In this document: positions 4,494 through 50,020 of the stretch, one piece after another
Layout of the letters: every line of letters starts with the position of its first letter
How positions within the stretch are numbered: position 1 is the stretch's first letter
Source: Escherichia coli
GTDB lineage: Bacteria; Pseudomonadota; Gammaproteobacteria; Enterobacterales; Enterobacteriaceae
DNA length: 64,000 bases
Assembly: GCF_011045215.1 (NCBI RefSeq)
Contig: NZ_CP049201.1
Reading direction: 5' to 3' (one strand)
Position numbers and translations under genes: made by a program
Notes under the pieces: generated by a model
What the model saw: only the letters and a program-made list of their open reading frames with translations
Told to the model about the DNA's origin: nothing
Database searches by the model: none

Positions 4494-5138
4494 ATGGCAA
4501 TGATATTCAACGCTAAGGGTTTTTTATTCGATATGGACGGTACGCTGGTTGATTCAACAGCCGTAGTGGAAAACGTCTGGAGAGATTTTTGTGCAGAATA
4601 CGGTCTTGATTCTCAGGCTGTGATTGCTTACGCACACGGGCGGCAAACGATTGATACACTAACGCATTTTATTGGTGCAGGTGAGAAAACCAATAAAATC
4701 GCGGCCTCACTCGAAGAGGTTGAAATCAACACGACAGAAGGCGTTACTGAAGTAAAAGGGGCCGCTGCACTCTTATCAAAACTGCCACCGGATAGCTGGG
4801 CACTTGTCACTTCTGCAGGCAGAATGCTTGCCGAAAACAGGATGAAAGCGGCTAATCTCCCCTTACCCAGAGTAATGGTGTGTGCAGAAGATGTAATGAC
4901 GGGAAAACCAAGTCCCGAGGGTTACATCAAAGCAGCTTTGGCTTTGGGCCTTGAGCCTGGTGAATGCGTGGTATTTGAGGATGCATCTGCGGGTATAAAA
5001 GCAGGGCTGGCAAGTGGAGCTTCGGTAATAGCTGTTCAGCCTGACGCTCTGGGATCATCTGAAGCCCATGCCGTCAGCGAACTGTCTGACATTATGGTCA
5101 AGATTTCCGGAGAACGTTTCAATATCATCTGTGGTTAA
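4494..5138 (+). CDS. HAD-superfamily (subfamily IA) hydrolase/phosphatase
   Basis: HAD motif I FDMDGTLVDS near N-terminus; C-terminal motifs (VVFEDASAGIKAG). Confidence 0.8.
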   Translation: MAMIFNAKGFLFDMDGTLVDSTAVVENVWRDFCAEYGLDSQAVIAYAHGRQTIDTLTHFIGAGEKTNKIAASLEEVEINTTEGVTEVKGAAALLSKLPPDSWALVTSAGRMLAENRMKAANLPLPRVMVCAEDVMTGKPSPEGYIKAALALGLEPGECVVFEDASAGIKAGLASGASVIAVQPDALGSSEAHAVSELSDIMVKISGERFNIICG

Positions 5139-5687
5139 TCACGTTACACAATACGCATCAATGGACGCTGAGTAGTTCGCGAGTTTTAAACTTCCAACGT
5201 CCGCTTTTCGCTCAAAGCGGACTAGAAGGTTAGCTTGTATCGGACTTTGCGTATTAAATGACTAGTGGTTGAGCCCCATTTCCACAGAAAAAATCAGAGA
5301 AACTATACCCAATAGTTGTATTGAATCACTGACGAGACAGCCTCATATTCATCAGGACTGGTGTACGTCCAATACAGGAGGTTGTGGTGCTGGTTCTCAA
5401 ATGTGCGCTGGCTATTACGGCTGTAATGGCGATTTATTGTCTTGCTATTGTTCTTATGGATCGCCTTTCTGACTGATTTCATATTGGCGAGGTAACGGTA
5501 GTTAAGTAGAATGGCTGCGGGTGCTTGAGGCTATCTGCCTCGGGCATGAACACCAACGGCAGATAGAGAAAAGCCCCAGTTAACATTACGCGTCCTGCAA
5601 GACGCTTAACATTAATCTGAGGCCAATTTCATGCTAGACACATGTAGGTTAGCCTCTTACGTGCCGAAAGGCAAGGAGAAGCAGGCT

Positions 5688-5843
5688 ATGAAGCAGCAAA
5701 AGGCGATGTTAATCGCCCTGATCGTCATCTGTTTAACCGTCATAGTGACGGCACTGGTAACGAGGAAAGACCTCTGCGAGGTACGAATCCGAACCGGCCA
5801 GACGGAGGTCGCTGTCTTCACAGCTTACGAACCTGAGGAGTAA
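5688..5843 (+). CDS. hokD: Hok/Gef-family type I toxin (HokD/RelF-like), 51 aa
   Basis: Translation MKQQKAMLIALIVICLTVIVTALVTRKDLCEVRIRTGQTEVAVFTAYEPEE matches recalled HokD; in-frame upstream extension from 5631 is mok-like; sok antisense expected ~5600..5700 on minus strand. Confidence 0.85.
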   Translation: MKQQKAMLIALIVICLTVIVTALVTRKDLCEVRIRTGQTEVAVFTAYEPEE

Positions 5844-6657: not shown

Positions 6658-7707
6658 GTGCGGGTATTACTTCGACCTGTTCTGGTACCGGAACTCGGGC
6701 TGGTGGTCGTTAAGCCGGGCCGTGAATCCATGCCGGTATTCCACAATACCCGGGTACTGGTGGAGCCGGAACCGAAAAGCATGCGTAATCTGCCGTCCGG
6801 GATCGTTCCTGCCGTTCGCCAGCCGCTGGTGGAAGACAAAACATTGCTGCCGTTTTTCAGTAATGCACGGGTAATTCGTGCTGCTGGTGGTGCTGGTGCA
6901 TTGTCTGACTGGCTGTTGCGCCATATTAAATCCTGCCAGTGGCCACACGGCGATTATCATCACAGCGAAACCGTTATTCACCGTTATGGTACCGGCGCAA
7001 TGGTGTTGTGCTGGCACTGCGACAACCAGCTGCGTGACCAGACATCCGAATCACTCGAGCAACTTGCTCATCAAAACCTGTCAGCATGGATGATTGACGT
7101 CATCGGTCACGCAATAAGCGGTACGCAGGAGCGTGAATTATCTCTGGCTGAATTATCCTGGTGGGCGGTCCGCAATCAGGTGGCGGACGCGCTACCGGAA
7201 GCGGTATTACGTCGTTCGCTGGGGTTGCGTGCGGAAAAAATCCGCTCCATGTACCGTGAAAGCGACATCGTACCGGGAGAGCAGACCGCCACCAGCATAC
7301 TGAAACAGCGCACAAAAAATCTTGCGCCGCTGCCTCACGCCCACCAGCAACAGAACCCACCACAGGAAAAGACGGTGGTCAGCATTGCCGTTGATCCTGA
7401 GTCTCCGGAATCTTTCATGAAACGACCTAAACGTCGCCGCTGGGTTAATGAAAAGTACACGCGCTGGGTTAAGACACAGCCGTGTGCATGTTGTGGAAAG
7501 CCCGCTGATGATCCCCACCACCTGATAGGCCACGGTCAGGGGGGAATGGGTACAAAAGCGCATGACCTCTTTGTGTTGCCTTTGTGCAGAAAGCATCACG
7601 ACGAGCTGCATGCGGATACCGTGGCATTTGAAGAGAAGTATGGCTCCCAGCTGGAGCTGATATTTCGTTTTATCGATCGTGCGCTGGCAATTGGCGTGCT
7701 GGCCTGA
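6658..7707 (+). CDS. ydfU: DUF968-family prophage protein (YdfU-like), 349 aa
   Basis: C-terminal CACCGKPADDPHHL...CRKHHDELH zinc-binding-like motifs as recalled for YdfU/DUF968; position before Q as in Qin. Confidence 0.7.
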   Translation: MRVLLRPVLVPELGLVVVKPGRESMPVFHNTRVLVEPEPKSMRNLPSGIVPAVRQPLVEDKTLLPFFSNARVIRAAGGAGALSDWLLRHIKSCQWPHGDYHHSETVIHRYGTGAMVLCWHCDNQLRDQTSESLEQLAHQNLSAWMIDVIGHAISGTQERELSLAELSWWAVRNQVADALPEAVLRRSLGLRAEKIRSMYRESDIVPGEQTATSILKQRTKNLAPLPHAHQQQNPPQEKTVVSIAVDPESPESFMKRPKRRRWVNEKYTRWVKTQPCACCGKPADDPHHLIGHGQGGMGTKAHDLFVLPLCRKHHDELHADTVAFEEKYGSQLELIFRFIDRALAIGVLA

Positions 7708-7709
7708 TT

Positions 7710-8069
7710 TTGTGGAGAAAGTTGATGCGTGATATGTATGAAGTTTTAGACCGCTGGGGAGCGTGGGCTGCAGCAGATAACAGTGGTGTGGACTGGCAGC
7801 CGATAGCAGCAGGCTTTAAGGGGCTTTTACCTCATGGTAAAAAAATACGCCTTCAGTGTGATGATGATGAAGGCATCATGATAGACGGCTGTGTTGCCCG
7901 CCTGTGTAAGTATAAACCAGACGAATATGAGCTGATCATTGCTCACTTCGTTATAGGTATTTCACTGCGTTCTATTGCGAAGAGACGCAGATGCTCAGAT
8001 GGAACAATCCGGAAGCAATTGCAGACTGCGTTAGGTTTCATTAATGGGGTTATGTACATGCTCAAGTAA
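7710..8069 (+). CDS. Phage antitermination protein Q-like, 119 aa
   Basis: Small basic protein with Cys cluster and C-terminal HTH-like segment (IAHFVIGISLRSIAKRRRCSDGTIRKQL), at the canonical Q position upstream of the lysis cassette. Confidence 0.6.
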   Translation: MWRKLMRDMYEVLDRWGAWAAADNSGVDWQPIAAGFKGLLPHGKKIRLQCDDDEGIMIDGCVARLCKYKPDEYELIIAHFVIGISLRSIAKRRRCSDGTIRKQLQTALGFINGVMYMLK

Positions 8070-9288
8070 TATTTGGCATTAATTTAAATAAAATACCGAT
8101 GATGCCTATGAATGTAGGCATCCATGCTAGTGATAATAAACTGTCAAGCACCTTATGACAAAAATCCTCATTGTCATTTAATTTTTTAATAGCCTCTTCT
8201 AAGCTCTCTTTAAGATCGCTGGTGTCATCCTTTATTCTATATCTTAATTGTCCAAAAAGTATTTCTTTAGAGTGTGAAATACGAGCAAGTTGTTTTTTTT
8301 GTGACACAATCATTGCAGATGTTATTATTGCTGTGATAATCAATCCAATTAAAGCAATAATCCAATCAGCTTTTGTTGTTAATTTGAAAATAGCAATTGA
8401 ACCAGCTAGTGAAATAGGTATTGCAAGAGCTTTGTTAGAAATTTCTGAAATTATTTTTGACAGTTTTTCTGAGTAATCGAGTTCAGCATCAACAACTTCT
8501 TTCCTTGCTTTATGAAAAGAAAATGCCGATATATAAGCAGCTAAGTTGTTCGTATAAAGTTCGCATATGAAATCCCACTTGTTAATTAACTCGACAAAGG
8601 AATTTCCATTTTTATTAACATACTCAATAACTGTGTTTCTGAAAGTGTTAATCTTTTCAATGTGATGGGCATCAGTAGTAGCTTCACTACTTACTAATGT
8701 TTTAACTAACTGAGTATTTACTGTTTTATCATTAAAAATTTCTTCTGTAATATTTGTTTCAATTACAGCAGAAGAAGATTTAGACTCTGAGTTTAAAATA
8801 AAGACTAAACGATAAAATGTACCTTTGCTATCTTTTTTTATATCATGGAAATGAGCAAGCATGGAAAGAGCATTGATTAGCTCACAAATGTCCTCAATTT
8901 TTTGGATATAAGAAGGTTTTGGTGTTTCTAATGAATAGAAATCATCCTCTATAATATAGAAATACTCTGGCATTATGCCTTTCTTGAGCGTGTTTATTTT
9001 TACAAACTCGTTTTTATTTTTATAAAAACGATTCGCACTTCCTTGTGAAATTTTAAACGAGTATGTAAGAAAATTTCCCTTTTCAGGAAAGTCTTCATAA
9101 TCATAAATTAAATGACCATCCACCTCTATTTCGTCAGCTGTACCAGCTTGAAAAGTAGGGTTCAAAATTCTTTTGAACAATGATTTTACGTCTGCATTAT
9201 AAGCTATACGCGCAGAAAACTTAGCCCCGTCAAAATGAGGATAGCTTGATAATCTATACAGATTAACTATTATACTAAAATCATTCAT
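8062..9288 (-). CDS. Membrane protein, 408 aa, three predicted TM helices in C-terminal third; candidate effector of two-gene cassette
   Basis: ATG overlaps upstream gene stop (ATGA at 9285..9288); hydrophobic helices (ALAIPISLAGSIAIFKL, WIIALIGLIITAIITSAMIV, LLSLAWMPTFIGIIGILFKLM); AT-rich codon usage. Confidence 0.7.
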   Translation of the reverse strand: MNDFSIIVNLYRLSSYPHFDGAKFSARIAYNADVKSLFKRILNPTFQAGTADEIEVDGHLIYDYEDFPEKGNFLTYSFKISQGSANRFYKNKNEFVKINTLKKGIMPEYFYIIEDDFYSLETPKPSYIQKIEDICELINALSMLAHFHDIKKDSKGTFYRLVFILNSESKSSSAVIETNITEEIFNDKTVNTQLVKTLVSSEATTDAHHIEKINTFRNTVIEYVNKNGNSFVELINKWDFICELYTNNLAAYISAFSFHKARKEVVDAELDYSEKLSKIISEISNKALAIPISLAGSIAIFKLTTKADWIIALIGLIITAIITSAMIVSQKKQLARISHSKEILFGQLRYRIKDDTSDLKESLEEAIKKLNDNEDFCHKVLDSLLSLAWMPTFIGIIGILFKLMPNIT

Positions 9289-10451
9289 TCTTTATCTTCT
9301 TCATTACTCGGGTTATCAGTTTCTTTCAACGCTCTTCTTATCTTAGTTAATGCTTCAACAGGCAAATTATTAAATGTTAGGCTTTGGTTTTCGTCATCAT
9401 AATATATTTTAGCATCAGTTGTGACACCGAGTAAATCCTTGTCGAAGTGAAAGCTCAATGATGGGGTTTTATATATCACATTGCGGATTTTATCTAAGGA
9501 GTTTTTATTGATTACGAACTCTGATGGGATTCTGACTTCCTCACTATTGAGGTGTTTCATTAATTTATCAACAAGTTCTGTTTTTTCTTCCTCTTTTAAA
9601 TAGGACATATGGCCTGAAGCAAGCGATTCGATATCAGAAAGCCTTGCAGAGTGCTCGTTGTCAAATTGCTTTTCTAAGTATTTGATAACATCATTTCTAA
9701 ATGACTCTGCTTGATTTTTTAAAAGAGGTTCTTTCTTAAAGAAACGCCTTATTTCATCTGGTAACTTACGGGTTGCGCCTGCTGAAGCAATCCCCTTGTC
9801 ACATCCTAATGCTGCTATAAAATATGCTGCCGCTGACTGTCCCGTAGTTTTGCTTATAAAGCTTAGATAACTTAAGTCTGTTTTTTTTAAATCATCTGCT
9901 TTTTGGTATTCTTCATAATATCTGAAATTTATTTTTGCTGCTTGGTTAATATTACCAAGTTCTAAGTGAATCATTTCCTCTGGCTCTAAATTTTCACTAA
10001 TAGTTACGCCATTAGTTTTTTTGATCATTGTAACCAATAGATAACGGAAACCAGATAAAATATAATCAGTAAAAACAACATATCCTCCAGAAGCCCAAAT
10101 CTGCTCTTGAGCAGATTTATACATTTGTTTCATAACTTCCTTCGATAATTCAATGAAATCATTTGAAACAGATTGTTGAACTAAAGAGTATTTATGAAAT
10201 AGTTCTGGTATAGGGCCTTGTTTTGTTTTATTTTTAATAAAAACACCATAATGCGCTGAGTTCCCTTTTGAACCATACAAATCAATAACACCGTCTACTA
10301 ATTTTTTTACTATATCATTTGTTTTATCTAGTTCTGTATCACGAAGATTGTATGGTTTGGAGTGATCGAAGTCTTTATTAGATTCTTTTAAGAGCTCATG
10401 AACGATTACGTGGCGTATGCTTGCTTTGCTCATTTTTTTGGTCAATTCCAT
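9285..10451 (-). CDS. NdpA/YejK-like (NA37 family) nucleoid-associated-protein homologue, 388 aa; candidate sensor of two-gene cassette
   Basis: Motif-level resemblance to recalled E. coli YejK: N-terminal IRHVIVHELLK, central GGYVVFTDY...YLLVTMIK...ISENLEP, YLSFISKTTGQSAAAYF, C-terminal SLTFNNLP. AT-rich (~30% G+C in a 60-nt spot check). Confidence 0.75.
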   Translation of the reverse strand: MELTKKMSKASIRHVIVHELLKESNKDFDHSKPYNLRDTELDKTNDIVKKLVDGVIDLYGSKGNSAHYGVFIKNKTKQGPIPELFHKYSLVQQSVSNDFIELSKEVMKQMYKSAQEQIWASGGYVVFTDYILSGFRYLLVTMIKKTNGVTISENLEPEEMIHLELGNINQAAKINFRYYEEYQKADDLKKTDLSYLSFISKTTGQSAAAYFIAALGCDKGIASAGATRKLPDEIRRFFKKEPLLKNQAESFRNDVIKYLEKQFDNEHSARLSDIESLASGHMSYLKEEEKTELVDKLMKHLNSEEVRIPSEFVINKNSLDKIRNVIYKTPSLSFHFDKDLLGVTTDAKIYYDDENQSLTFNNLPVEALTKIRRALKETDNPSNEEDKE

Positions 10452-10551
10452 GCGGTTAAGCTAACAATTGTAAAGAGCATAATAAATTACTAACGCGTAC
10501 GCAAAAACTATCATAATCTGTTAAGAGTGGTTACTTCGCCACACAGCTTAA

Positions 10552-10580
10552 ACCCGCCGTCGAGCGGTTTTTTTGTACCT
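10552..10580 (+). terminator. Candidate late-operon terminator (tR'-like) preceded by candidate late promoter
   Basis: Short GC hairpin cccgccgtcgagcgg followed by ttttttt; upstream TTACTA-N18-TCATAAT promoter-like hexamers at ~10489..10522. Confidence 0.35.
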
Positions 10581-10672
10581 GTAAAACTGGTGCAGTACAG
10601 TAAACACGCTGGTGGTCGTGAATACTGACTTTTTATCTTGCTGGCTTTTTAGACAAGAGTTATTGGTATGTC

Positions 10673-10900
10673 ATGTTAACCAGAAGGGAAAAAGACATGC
10701 TAAAACAGCAAGATATGACAGAAACCGCCGCCGCAGTCCTTCATTTCTTACCTGCTGACAAGTGGGTAACGCCACGCATGATGACGAGAACTACCGGAGT
10801 AAGCGAAGCCCGGTGCCAGTTAATACTGACTCAGTTAGTTCTGGCGGGTCTGGCGAAGGATAACGGCGGGTACGGGAATAAATTCAGACGCTGCCAGTAA
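10673..10900 (+). CDS. Hypothetical small protein, 75 aa (possible winged-helix)
   Basis: ORF first in the late operon; no motif assigned. Confidence 0.4.
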   Translation: MLTRREKDMLKQQDMTETAAAVLHFLPADKWVTPRMMTRTTGVSEARCQLILTQLVLAGLAKDNGGYGNKFRRCQ

Positions 10901-11050
10901 TGGCGGTTTCCTGCTGTGAAAATGGGCGGCTGGTGGGTGTTGGTAGCACCTGCCAGCCATTCGCTCATGCTTACTGGTCACAAGCGAACCACGGCCCACT
11001 GCTTTAGCGCAAAAGCAGAGTGAGCCTACCAGAGTTACGCTTACTGATCC

Positions 11051-12103
11051 ATGAAAAATACTGTAAAAATAAACAGTGTTGATTTAATCAACGCTGATTG
11101 CCTGCATTTTATTCAGTCCTTGCCTGATGATTCCATTGATCTGATTGTTACCGATCCGCCGTACTTCAAAGTGAAGCCCAACGGCTGGGACAATCAGTGG
11201 AAAGGGGACGAAGATTACCTGAAGTGGCTGGACTACTGTCTGGCCCAGTTCTGGCGGGTACTGAAACCAGCCGGAAGCCTTTACCTGTTCTGTGGACATC
11301 GCCTGGCATCTGATATTGAGATCATGATGCGTGAACGTTTCAACGTGCTTAACCATATCATCTGGGCGAAGCCGTCCGGACGTTGGAATGGGTGTAATAA
11401 AGAAAGTCTGCGCGCATATTTTCCTGCCACAGAGCGCGTTCTGTTTGCTGAACATTACCAGGGGCCATATCGCGGCAAAAGTGACGGCTATGCGGCAAAA
11501 GAAAGGGAACTCAAACAGCACATAATGGCACCGCTGATATCGTATTTCAGGGATGCTCGTGCCGAACTGGGTATAACGGCAAAACAAATTGCCGAAGCCA
11601 CAGGTAAGAAAAATATGGTTTCCCACTGGTTTGGTGCCAGTCAGTGGCAGTTGCCGAATGAGGCTGACTATCGGAAGTTACAGGCACTGTTTTCCCGTAT
11701 AGCGGCAGAGAAGTTTCAGGAACAACAACTGGAACAACCACACCACCAGCTGGTGGCATCTTATGATTCACTGAATCGCAAATATTCTGAATTGCTGGAT
11801 GAGTTTAAATCTCTCCGGCGCTATTTCTCCGTATCAGTCTCCGTGCCTTATACCGATGTCTGGATGCATAAACCCGTTCAGTTCTACCCGGGTAAACATC
11901 CGTGTGAGAAACCTGCGGATATGCTCCGGCAAATAATCAATGCCAGTAGTCGACCTGGTGATCTGGTTGCTGATTTTTTTATGGGATCCGGTTCCACAAT
12001 AAAAGCAGCAATGGCGCTGGGGCGTCGGGCCTTAGGTGTTGAGCTTGAGTCAGAGCGGTTTAACCAGACAGTGAAAGAGATATACGAGCTGGTGGGGAAA
12101 TAA
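11051..12103 (+). CDS. Orphan DNA N6-adenine/N4-cytosine methyltransferase (beta class)
   Basis: Catalytic DPPY motif near N-terminus (LIVTDPPYF) and AdoMet-binding FxGxG near C-terminus (DFFMGSGST); no cognate endonuclease gene adjacent. Confidence 0.85.
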   Translation: MKNTVKINSVDLINADCLHFIQSLPDDSIDLIVTDPPYFKVKPNGWDNQWKGDEDYLKWLDYCLAQFWRVLKPAGSLYLFCGHRLASDIEIMMRERFNVLNHIIWAKPSGRWNGCNKESLRAYFPATERVLFAEHYQGPYRGKSDGYAAKERELKQHIMAPLISYFRDARAELGITAKQIAEATGKKNMVSHWFGASQWQLPNEADYRKLQALFSRIAAEKFQEQQLEQPHHQLVASYDSLNRKYSELLDEFKSLRRYFSVSVSVPYTDVWMHKPVQFYPGKHPCEKPADMLRQIINASSRPGDLVADFFMGSGSTIKAAMALGRRALGVELESERFNQTVKEIYELVGK

Positions 12104-12109
12104 TCTGGT

Positions 12110-12133
12110 GGCCACGTAGGTGGCCTTTTTATT
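12110..12133 (+). terminator. Hairpin plus T-tract after methylase gene
   Basis: ggccac-gtag-gtggcc followed by tttttattt. Confidence 0.45.
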
Positions 12134-12169
12134 TCCATTACACAGCACCCGCATCTGCGAGGTGGGGTT

Positions 12170-12385
12170 ATGAAATCCATGGATAAGTTAACAACGGGTG
12201 TCGCCTATGGCACCTCAGCAGGTAGTGCCGGGTACTGGTTTTTACAGTTGCTCGATAAAGTCACGCCCTCACAGTGGGCGGCAATAGGTGTGCTGGGTAG
12301 TCTGGTATTTGGCTTGCTGACGTATCTGACAAACCTTTATTTCAAGATTAAAGAAGATAAGCGTAAGGCTGCGAGAGGTGAATAA
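12170..12385 (+). CDS. Class II pinholin (phage 21 S-like), 71 aa with dual start MKSM
   Basis: Translation [71 protein letters not shown] matches recalled S21. Confidence 0.8.
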
Positions 12386-12882
12386 TGTCGCCATCATTAC
12401 GCAAGGCTGTTGCTGCTGCTATTGGTGGTGGGGCTGTTGCCATAGCGTCTGTGCTCATCACTGGTCCGAGTGGTGACGATGGCCTGGAAGGTGTCAGCTA
12501 CATACCATACAAAGATATCGTTGGCGTATGGACTGTATGTCACGGACACACCGGAAAAGACATCATGCTAGGTAAAACGTATACCGAAGCAGAATGCAAA
12601 GCCCTCCTGAATAAAGACCTTGCCACGGTCGCCAGACAAATTAACCCGTACATCAAAGTCGATATACCGGAAACAACGCGCGGCGCTCTTTACTCGTTCG
12701 TCTACAACGTGGGTGCTGGCAATTTCAGAACATCGACGCTTCTTCGCAAAATAAACCAGGGCGATATCAAAGGCGCATGTGACCAGCTACGTCGCTGGAC
12801 ATACGCTGGCGGTAAGCAATGGAAAGGCCTGATGACTCGTCGTGAGATTGAGCGTGAAGTCTGTTTGTGGGGGCAACAATGA
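12385..12882 (+). CDS. SAR endolysin (lysozyme, phage 21 R-like)
   Basis: N-terminal Gly/Ala-rich SAR domain ([20 protein letters not shown]); lysozyme-family core; ATGA overlap with holin stop. Confidence 0.85.
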
Positions 12883-13346
12883 GCAGAGTAACCGCGATTA
12901 TCTCCGCTCTGGTTATCTGCATCATCGTCTGCCTGTCGTGGGCGGTCAATCATTACCGTGATAACGCCATCGCCTACAAAGAACAGCGAGATAAAAAAGT
13001 CAGTGAGCTGAAGCAGGCGACCGCCACCATCGCTGACATGCAGCAGCGTCAGCGTGATGTTGCTGCGATCGATGCAAAATACACGAAGGAGTTAGCCGAT
13101 GCGAAAACTGAAAATGAAACTCTGCGCGCTGATGTTGCCGCTGGTCGTAAGCGCCTGCGGGTCAATGCCAGTTGCTCCGCAGCCGTGCGTGAAGCCACCG
13201 GACCCACCAGCATGGATAATGCAACCAGCCCCCGACTGGCAGACACCGCTGAACGGGATTATTTCATCCTCAGAGAACGGTTGATGACGATGCAGAAGCA
13301 ACTGGAAGGGGCGCAGGAATATATCCGCACCCAGCGCATTAAGTAG
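12867..13346 (+). CDS. i-spanin Rz
   Basis: N-terminal TM segment then coiled-coil-like sequence; overlaps endolysin end; Rz1 embedded in +1 frame. Confidence 0.75.
13099..13284 (+). CDS. o-spanin Rz1 (lipoprotein), embedded in Rz
   Basis: Lipobox LVVSAC followed by Pro-rich mature region. Confidence 0.7.
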
Positions 13347-36728: not shown

Positions 36729-37309
36729 TGGCATTCAGAATGAGTGAACAACCACGGACCATAAAAATTTATAATCTGCTGGCCGGAACTAATGAATTTA
36801 TTGGTGAAGGTGACGCATATATTCCACCTCATACAGGTCTGCCAGCAAACAGTACCGATATTGCACCGCCAGATATTCCGGCAGGCTTCGTGGCTGTTTT
36901 CAACAGTGATGAGGCATCGTGGCATCTTGTTGAAGACCATCGGGGTAAAACGGTTTATGACGTGGCTTCCGGCGACGCGTTATTTATTTCTGAACTCGGC
37001 TTATTACCGGAAAATGTCACCTGGTTATCCCCGGAAGGGGAGTTTCAGAAGTGGAACGGCACAGCCTGGGTGAAAGATGCAGAAGCAGAAAAACTGTTCC
37101 GGATCCGGGAGGCGGAAGAAACAAAAAACAACCTGATGCAGGTAGCCAGTGAGCATATTGCGCCACTTCAGGATGCTGTAGATCTGGAAATCGCAACGGA
37201 GGAAGAAAACTCGTTGCTGGAAGCCTGGAAGAAGTATCGGGTGTTGCTGAACCGTGTTGATACATCAACTGCACCTGATATTGAGTGGCCTGTAATACCA
37301 GAAGTTTAA
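36728..37309 (+). CDS. tfa: Tail fibre assembly protein (lambda Tfa-like)
   Basis: 193 aa; TAATG overlap with stf; followed by hairpin agcccgc...gcgggct at 37316..37345. Confidence 0.8.
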
Positions 37310-49705: not shown

Positions 49706-49744
49706 GCTCCGTTTAACATTCATTGAGAAAACTGATGCTACTGT

Positions 49745-49850
49745 GTCAACGATCCGTTATCAGTGCAGGAAAATGCCTGTTAGCGTAAAAGCAAAACACA
49801 AATCTATCCATGCAAGCATTCACCGCCGGTTTACTGGCGGTTTTTTTTTC
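49745..49850 (+). ncRNA. mgrR: Candidate MgrR-like sRNA ending in terminator 49821..49850
   Basis: Intergenic region downstream of dgcZ, divergent context with mgtS; strong hairpin caccgccgg-ttta-ctggcggt followed by nine T; recalled MgrR lies at this locus. Boundaries approximate. Confidence 0.35.
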
Positions 49851-49924
49851 GCCGTCATAAAAATCAGGCCCCTTGTACACAACTGTAACAAGGGGCCGGT
49901 TAGGTGAGGGATTATCTCCGTTCA

Positions 49925-50020
49925 TTAGTCATCCCATTTGTGGCTGAAATACGCGGCCAGAAAACCAGAAAATAAAATTATTCCCAGTACGGCCATAAAA
50001 ACATTCATATTACCCAGCAT
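49925..50020 (-). CDS. mgtS: Small membrane protein MgtS (YneM), 31 aa
   Basis: Reverse-strand translation MLGNMNVFMAVLGIILFSGFLAAYFSHKWDD; terminator hairpin ggccccttgt...acaaggggcc at 49866..49900 on minus strand. Confidence 0.65.
   Translation of the reverse strand: MLGNMNVFMAVLGIILFSGFLAAYFSHKWDD

Follow-up and report, generated by a model that had tools for sequence, protein, structure and literature searches.

A late control region that is very probably intact and matched to its Q gene across a 2.4-kb cassette in an Escherichia coli lambdoid prophage

The DNA analysed here is a stretch of 64,000 nt from Escherichia coli contig NZ_CP049201.1 (the window; all coordinates refer to its first letter), and the element in question is a 221-bp intergenic region (10452–10672) in which the late promoter pR' of a lambdoid prophage appears to lie. 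The region belongs to a lambdoid prophage of E. coli, and 28 complete E. coli genomes share at least 80% of positions 7400–12400 at ~99% identity. On the plus strand, a DUF968 gene (6658–7707) precedes the late antiterminator gene Q (7725–8069), the product of which matches PF06530 (E 5e-44) and phrog_79 'anti-termination protein Q-like'. The longest open reading frame (ORF) of Q opens at a TTG at 7710; the start at 7725 is that of the Prokaryotic Genome Annotation Pipeline (PGAP), taken from a 99%-identical genome. Between Q and the intergenic region lie two minus-strand genes, of which the first (9285–10451; PGAP start 10433) encodes a YejK/NdpA-like nucleoid-associated protein (NA37) and the second (8062–9288) a protein of 408 amino acids (aa). 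The second gene is convergent with Q, and the two stop codons overlap by 8 bp, in agreement with a first-pass annotation of the sequence, which had the Q stop (8069) abutting a convergent cassette. This cassette is AT-rich, with a GC content of ~0.28–0.38 versus ~0.5 in both flanks. To the right of the intergenic region, the plus strand carries an ORF of 75 aa (10673–10900; phrog_331), the first of the presumed late transcript, which is found in the same place in SfV, Ayreon, cdtI and Shiga-toxin (Stx) phages, and, from 12170 onward, the lysis genes followed by terminase.

Positions 10478–10575 form a conserved block of ~100 bp that is common to phages with the same Q family and has the form TAACGCGTACGCAAAA - N13 - TGTTAAGAGTGGTTACTTCGCCACACAGCTTAAA - hairpin - T tract. 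We searched 248 Q-family loci with a profile of this block. The set, 240 of which came from IMG/VR via three Q queries, is made up of three similarity-ranked, E. coli-dominated samples from a single collection, and many loci are near-identical (an alignment of 86 blocks reduces to 65 unique sequences). Q and the block are found together in 230 out of 248 loci, the block being always single, on the plus strand and downstream of Q, and the profile search detected no minus-strand or duplicate copies in these loci. Among the 18 block-less loci, four end at the Q stop, six hold less than 1.4 kb after Q, and eight hold more than 3.7 kb yet have no block. In relatives, nhmmer E-values for the block reach down to 1e-30, and its 34-nt core occurs once in the window, where 0 occurrences are expected. 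In E. coli K-12 the block is located in prophage DLP12 between nmpC (minus strand) and essD. Phages with a Q82-like Q (250 aa: SfV, Ayreon and vB_EcoM-720R4) share the DNA from the hairpin rightwards; their promoter, located between Q and this hairpin, is a different one. A search of papers with the block sequence returned irrelevant matches only.

The distance between Q and the block is bimodal in the 230 loci that have both: it is at most 60 bp in 31 loci, never 60–500 bp, and 0.5–3.8 kb in 199, where the block lies just before the late genes. It is 0–10 bp from the Q stop in a cassette-free locus (L023), in Stx2_EH2201 (L004), where it begins at the Q stop codon itself, in 933W and in phage 21, and it is found 1.5–2.5 kb past Q, behind minus-strand genes, in Stx2a_1447, Stx1_14040, cdtI, SfII, SfIV and a Klebsiella phage. 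This comparison with cassette-free relatives bears out the first-pass annotation, according to which pR' normally abuts Q and has here been separated from it by an inserted cassette, so that the late promoter and terminator stand ~2.4 kb past Q, just before the late operon. Separation of Q from the block is, however, the usual state for this Q subtype and not a one-off insertion.

The 933W GenBank record annotates, on homologous DNA, a pR' with −35 TTTACG, 16 bp and −10 TATCAT, a putative qut and a terminator. In the window, the hexamer TAATCT (10514–10519, plus strand) aligns with the annotated 933W −10 TATCAT, and the hexamer in this place, ending at the T of TGTTAAG, has A in position 2 and T in position 6 in 65 out of 65 unique blocks. 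The predicted pR' start is the A of TAAG[A]GTGG at 10526 (plus strand), the homologous base of which has been mapped in Sp5 and DLP12. For Sp5 of strain Sakai, differential RNA sequencing placed the PR' start at 1,266,203 and Term-seq placed an RNA 3' end at 1,266,460 (NC_002695.1; Sy et al. 2020, PMC7547250). With an offset of +142 to NC_002695.2, the start falls on the A of GATAAG[A]GTGG and the 3' end on the final T of the T tract of the terminator; since one offset fits both, the two positions check each other. For DLP12, Cappable-seq detected a plus-strand start at 576452 in U00096.2 (Ettwiller et al. 2016, PMC4782308). The homologous A is position 4730 of our DLP12 locus (L011), 7 nt past the hexamer TATGCT. 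It coincides with the Cappable-seq start if 777 is added to 576452, which we take to be the offset between U00096.2 and U00096.3 at DLP12; consistent with this offset, the neighbouring strong start 576081 then falls 7 nt after a TATTAT. Thus, the position and the start site of pR' in the window can be regarded as established by homology to experimental maps.

Other assignments of the −10 fared less well. The upstream hexamer TATCAT (10509–10514) was considered and rejected: it is not conserved in DLP12, L074, L044 and L084, the mapped starts fit the downstream hexamer, and across the 65 unique blocks A in position 2 and T in position 6 are not always kept in this upstream hexamer, which overlaps the TCATAAT discussed next. 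The first-pass annotation had proposed TTACTA and TCATAAT as the pR' hexamers. These are located at 10487–10492 and 10511–10517, the pair falls below the threshold of the consensus scan, TTACTA lies in non-conserved, cassette-specific DNA, and the conserved −10 is TAATCT, which overlaps TCATAAT by 4 nt. Across 7600–12400, the scan found 12 promoter-like sites versus 13.2 expected in shuffled sequences.

DLP12 displays a further start in this neighbourhood, the strong plus-strand Cappable-seq signal (score 90) at ~4359 of L011, just upstream of the nmpC start codon and 7 nt after TATTAT. It lies near the RpoE-dependent essD start reported by others and implies that the DLP12 lysis genes have a second, stronger upstream promoter, the transcript of which must cross the pR' block and hairpin. 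We rejected the RpoE-dependent start as the block promoter: the primers given in PMC7918800 place it near L011 4375, ~350 bp upstream of the block, and it therefore belongs to a different promoter. That paper also cites a report that DLP12 Q controls the essD lysis cassette. The 3'-end tables of Adams 2021 have no entry for essD, nmpC or quuD.

Downstream of the predicted start, the block continues with a near-invariant leader, AGTGGTTACTTCGCCACACAGCTTAAAC (10526–10553, plus strand), the conservation of which suggests that it probably holds pause and Q-loading signals. Among Q subtypes of only ~50% protein identity, the first ~28 nt of the leader hardly vary, and yet they form no conserved hairpin. 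Such conservation exceeds the needs of a promoter and may reflect either Q-loading and pause signals or a role as a small RNA (sRNA) similar to StxS. The 'qut' annotation of 933W corresponds to +8 to +15. At +7 to +12 the window has TACTTC, ending in C, which corresponds in the alignment to TACATT of 933W and to TACTTT of other loci, and AAGAGT spans −3 to +3; neither is kept as TAnnnT across loci. A possible leader hairpin, GUGG/CCAC (+2 to +17), was discarded, as RNAalifold keeps three pairs, there are no compensatory changes and some variants break it; moreover, the leader of the window folds no better than shuffled sequences (z = −1.2).

The leader ends in a terminator-like hairpin, CCGC/GCGG with a 6-nt loop (stem 10554–10557/10564–10567), followed by a T7 tract (10568–10574). 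RNA folding and a terminator scan (10556–10568) both pick out this plus-strand structure, which the first-pass annotation had also recognized, and it is homologous to the annotated terminators of 933W and SfV; it would be the first pR'-proximal terminator. Of 105 unique leaders, 88 have a hairpin and T tract, and the median start of the tract is +46. The hairpins comprise 60 different sequences with the structure kept, which argues for selection on structure; covariation in a MAFFT-based alignment is modest and consists mostly of G-C to G-U changes, with double changes at two pairs. No second terminator is evident in 10576–10672. In phage Ayreon (L002), a plus-strand moron of two small ORFs lies between two tR'-like hairpin copies (1670–1713 and 2349–2387), which indicates cargo inserted at the terminator and not at the Q|pR' junction.

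The Q protein of the window is 46% identical to Q of 933W and 47% identical to QuuD, and belongs to the quuD/Q933W branch, within which we refer to it as subtype A; it also yields a distant match to the structures of Q21 (PDB 6p18, E 0.004). Overall, the Q proteins of the loci fall into four clusters. An 8-bp palindrome, GCGTACGC (10495–10502), is located at −31 to −24, counted from the pR' start, with an A5 tract (10503–10507) after it. This candidate Q-binding element is comparable in position to the Q-binding element (QBE) in the phage 21 annotation. The type of palindrome tracks the Q subtype in 227 out of 228 loci: subtype A, including the window, has ACGCGTACGC (81/81 loci), subtype B has GCGGTCCGC (71/71) and the QuuD-like subtype C has TTTACGTACGTA (75/76), and the 933W record contains TTTACGATCGTAAA. 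The sequences at −31 to −24 are palindromic in all these Q subtypes, and the sole exception has no recognisable palindrome, not that of another subtype. The leader and downstream DNA are common to all subtypes, and four cassette gene families are shared by A and B. The crossing of Q subtypes by cassette families and by leader and terminator variants implies recombination between subtypes, yet this has produced no mismatched pairs of Q and palindrome. The palindrome at 10495–10502 is the best candidate for the site to which Q most likely binds. Collectively, these data make it very probable that 10478–10575 is an intact Q-dependent late control region, comprising pR', a Q-loading region and the first terminator, which is matched to Q (7725–8069) despite the 2.4-kb cassette between them. 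The late control module as such is of the ordinary 933W/DLP12 type.

The interval between Q and pR' holds, across the loci, 298 ORFs of at least 90 aa, which represent 72 protein families in ~49 architectures; 291 of the 298 are on the minus strand. The cassettes have a GC content of 0.30–0.43, and the slot of subtype C always carries the porin gene nmpC/lc. The left breakpoint is within the last ~8 codons of Q and the right one 5–10 bp before CTAACGC. Those last codons vary with the cassette (window 8040–8069; Q 3' ends of L005, L006, L008 and L023), which suggests that each cassette supplies its own C-terminal tail of Q. When 20 representative slot proteins were scanned with PADLOC, 10 gave strong matches and one a marginal match (E ~5e-4), whereas half of the representatives match no known defence family. 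The matches include Kiwa KwaB (E 2e-150), NsnA, PDC-S20, PDC-S42, PDC-S60 and PDC-M53A, as well as a cytosine methyltransferase with an OLD/HEC-04-like ATPase and another OLD-like ATPase. As judged from the compared sequences, the Q|pR' gap is a recurrent swap site for cassettes and not a defect. It is undescribed in the literature that we searched on prophage defence hotspots and on pR' of Stx phages, although absence there is not proof that it was never described; a comparative study of Stx-phage pR' regions describes neither this promoter type nor the cassettes. We consider as moderately new the regular slot for minus-strand cassettes at Q|pR', the subtype-specific palindromes, the apparently hybrid divergent promoter and the shared promoter core.

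The cassette of the window itself is predicted to have a role in defence. The product of 9285–10451 matches PF04245 (NA37; E 2e-50), the NCBIfam model for YejK (E 1e-38, below the cut-off) and DS1_1_antiphage ('nucleoid-associated anti-phage protein'; E 3e-28, 99 bits versus a cut-off of 330). The product of 8062–9288 matches DS1_2_antiphage of NCBIfam (E 9e-29, 101 bits versus a cut-off of 315) and phrog_5023; it has no Pfam match, and hydrophobic helices are found at its C-terminus. PADLOC gave no match for this cassette, which was recognized through NCBIfam alone. The gene order and the hydrophobic C-terminus fit the published description of Pag2A/Pag2B (type II PANGU: a YejK-like protein and a transmembrane effector). 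Thus, the pair is probably a distant anti-phage pair similar to DS-1/PANGU type II and not an equivalog. Elsewhere among the loci, the slot holds two more diverged forms of this pair (families 10/11 and 28/29). In the window, the cassette is situated upstream of the pR' start at 10526 and diverges from it; it is not antisense inside the Q-controlled transcript, but only to possible read-through of the early transcript past Q. We found no terminator for the cassette transcript in the window.

The first-pass annotation had also argued that the intergenic region must contain a minus-strand promoter of the cassette, with TTGCGT and TATTAT as candidate hexamers. The region does contain a candidate, supported by spacing statistics in subtype A, and TTGCGT is conserved, but TATTAT (10484–10479) is only 14 bp from it and has to be replaced. 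The candidate −35 TTGCGT (10504–10499, minus strand) lies inside the phage block, overlaps the palindrome and is invariant in all subtype A loci. At 17 bp from it, TATGCT (10481–10476, minus strand) is the candidate −10, with a predicted start at ~10469. We analysed the spacing in one representative per promoter-proximal gene family, 29 of which belong to subtype A: a minus-strand TAnnnT is found exactly 17 bp from TTGCGT in 20 out of 29 and at 18 bp in three, while other non-conserved offsets give 0–3. The hexamers at 17 bp vary (TATATT, TAAACT, TACAAT, TAGAAT and others), and the DNA around them is unalignable; the cassette-free L023 has no TAnnnT in this position. From this variation, and from its absence in L023, the −10 appears to travel with the cassette, the −35 belonging to the phage block. 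The cassette promoter is probably a hybrid of a phage-block −35 and a cassette-borne −10. The predicted starts at ~10469 and 10526 are ~57 bp apart and the −35 regions interleave, which makes it plausible that the two promoters compete or that Q occludes the cassette −35.

These features suggest the following course of events. RNA polymerase would start at A10526 from TAATCT, without a good −35, transcribe the highly conserved leader of ~50 nt and, without Q, stop at least partly at the hairpin and T7 tract (10554–10574). Q, expressed from the early rightward transcript, would act in trans, so that its distance from pR' would not matter. It most likely would recognise the palindrome GCGTACGC in the −35/spacer position and then load onto the polymerase. 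The Q-loaded polymerase would pass the terminator at 10554–10574 and a second intrinsic-terminator-like site at 12110–12135 and enter the lysis and structural genes. This second site (GGCCAC/GTGGCC followed by a T run, plus strand) is located just 5' of the holin gene; because of it, the lysis genes would need an antiterminated polymerase even past the first hairpin. The cassette would fill precisely the slot that separates the Q stop codon from pR'. As it points away from the late operon and is no part of it, its expression in the lysogen would be possible. We tentatively consider a further possibility, in which we have little confidence: a single Q binding event at the shared −35 palindrome, where sigma region 4 normally sits, would both turn on pR' and block the cassette −35, and the phage would thereby silence its own anti-phage cargo at lytic entry. 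The junction would then be a docking site to which cassettes bring only a −10, and incoming cassettes would become genes that are on in lysogeny and off in lysis.

Several observations weigh against the assignment of 10478–10575 as a Q-dependent control region or against parts of it. The start maps come from Sp5 and DLP12, neither of which is this prophage or has a subtype A promoter, and in K-12 the homologous start of DLP12 gave a low Cappable-seq signal (1.7 versus 90 at the neighbouring start). By consensus, pR' is weak: its −10 matches at 3/6 positions and the best −35-like hexamer, CTAACG at 18 bp, also at 3/6, and the consensus scan called neither pR' nor the cassette promoter. As both go uncalled, consensus scores carry no information in this region. 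The candidate Q site is palindromic, whereas Q21, with the sole solved QBE of the PF06530 family, binds a direct repeat. Simple linkage could account for part of the agreement between Q subtype and palindrome. We identified no convincing sigma-dependent pause element in the leader of the window or in the alignment of loci. The hairpin of the window is weaker than most, with 4 GC pairs and −6.1 versus a median of −9.6 kcal/mol. Moreover, the PR' RNA of Sp5 ends at a second terminator 258 nt downstream (PMC7547250), indicating that transcription in Sp5 is not fully halted by the homologue of the first hairpin. As to the cassette promoter, subtype B shows a weak pattern, its minus-strand −10 varying in position.

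The match between Q subtype and palindrome, together with the fixed spacing of the cassette −10, might alternatively result from shared ancestry, a few ancestral modules having spread clonally. The composition of the sample, with its three similarity-ranked, E. coli-dominated parts and its many near-identical loci, speaks for this explanation. However, the spacing persists when each gene family is represented once, with differing hexamers and unalignable flanks, and the cassette families and the leader and terminator variants cross subtypes, while only one locus in 228, itself without a recognisable palindrome, breaks the rule. Hence we consider common descent alone an improbable explanation.

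Marginally less probable still is that the block is a constitutive promoter for a StxS-like sRNA or for the methyltransferase operon, with the palindrome as operator of a regulator other than Q and with Q loading elsewhere. The leader is conserved far beyond the needs of a promoter, the Sp5 homologue yields an Hfq-binding sRNA (PMC7547250), palindromes are typical of dimeric repressors, unlike the direct repeat of Q21, and in DLP12 the RpoE-dependent essD start, as placed by the primers of PMC7918800, is upstream of the block. By contrast, the palindrome follows the Q subtype and not the type of cassette, and the occurrence of ~35 cassette types with one palindrome inside subtype A excludes a cassette-encoded regulator; the gene upstream of Q, too, differs among loci of one subtype. 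Furthermore, the palindrome lies where the QBE of phage 21 lies with respect to the −10, and sRNA and pR' roles are compatible, as shown for StxS (PMC7547250). Finally, it is very improbable that the cassette has uncoupled Q from its promoter, leaving late transcription defective or starting after Q or inside the cassette, antisense to it, and the block as an unrelated remnant: pR' does abut Q in textbook lambdoid phages and in cassette-free relatives, and promoter-like plus-strand sites occur inside the AT-rich cassette (8301, 9246, 9796 and 10038), but such sites are no commoner than in shuffles and are not conserved, the overlapping stops leave no room after Q, the block is homologous to an experimentally mapped PR', and the Q-cassette-block layout prevails among the loci and is found in phages with complete genome records, for several of which the host used in propagation is named (cdtI, SfII, SfIV, mEp460_4F5 and Stx phages).

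Within the presumed late transcript, the first ORF is followed by a DNA methyltransferase gene (11051–12103), the holin gene (12170–12385), the signal-anchor-release (SAR) endolysin gene (12385–12882) and Rz (12867–13346), all on the plus strand; the essD annotation of the homologue was used for the assignment of the lysis genes. The hairpin at 12110–12135, between the methyltransferase and holin genes, is a strong one. A scan of the whole window at Rfam gathering thresholds gave no match within 10452–10672. Elsewhere in the window, Rfam detects the sok antitoxin RNA at 5519–5693 (plus strand, 115 bits), and an overlapping ORF of 70 aa (5631–5843) holds a Hok-like peptide, which together indicate a hok/sok-type toxin–antitoxin locus in the early region of the prophage. 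STnc560, an Hfq-binding sRNA (277 bits), is found at 49717–49931 and IS009 (228 bits) at 37071–37269.

In the annotation of phages with this Q family, the late promoter should be sought by the conserved block and not by closeness to Q. This matters for Shiga-toxin phages, in which pR' drives toxin expression and several of which carry the same cassette slot (L005 and L006). The three or four palindrome types matched to Q subtypes provide, for a Q branch that is unstudied, a specificity code that can be tested, and the promoter arrangement offers a possible way for a prophage to turn its defence cargo off on induction. With ~50 cassette types, the Q|pR' junction is also a compact and easily searched site and thus a source of candidate defence systems.

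The closest known counterparts of the window are 933W/Sp5 and DLP12 (quuD - nmpC - essD), which are similar to it in Q family and branch, in the position of the block −10, the start-site base, the leader and the first hairpin. In DLP12, too, Q and the block are separated by a minus-strand gene, here the porin gene nmpC and not a defence pair. In 933W/Sp5, by contrast, the block overlaps the Q 3' end and there is no cassette; the palindrome is TTTACG(AT/TA)CGTAAA, the left half of which is a reasonable −35, whereas the window has GCGTACGC and no good −35, and the Sp5 3' end lies at a second terminator at +258, the equivalent of which is missing before the first ORF in the window. Phage 21 (structures of Yin et al. 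2019; annotation OL657228) has a Q of the same PF06530 family and resembles the window in that a Q site, a candidate one in the window, lies in the −35/−10 spacer, the start follows the −10 by 7 nt and a terminator ends near +50, with pinholin, SAR endolysin and spanin genes downstream. However, Q21, with 162 aa, has only marginal sequence similarity to the Q of the window, and its QBE is the direct repeat ATTGAGCA / AATGAGCA, whereas the candidate here is a palindrome. Unlike the window promoter, pR'21 combines a consensus −35 (TTGACA) with a clear pause element, TAAGCT at +2 to +7 (+2 to +8 in the curated record), and it starts 7 bp past the Q stop with nothing in between.

As a site for cargo, the slot resembles the hotspots of P2/P4 (Rousset 2022, PMC9122126) and the 'noncontiguous operon' of phi80 taiEcA (PMC11364771), in which a fixed site flanked by conserved phage genes receives varied, AT-rich accessory or defence cassettes with their own promoter (a candidate one in the window), opposite to the late genes. 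The phi80 taiEcA cassette is inside the late operon, while that of the window is upstream of the late promoter. Unlike either system, the slot lies between a regulator gene and the DNA target of that same regulator, and its cassette promoter appears to borrow the −35 of the phage block. Compared with the textbook lambdoid arrangement, in which pR' immediately follows Q, the window has the block 2.4 kb past the Q stop.

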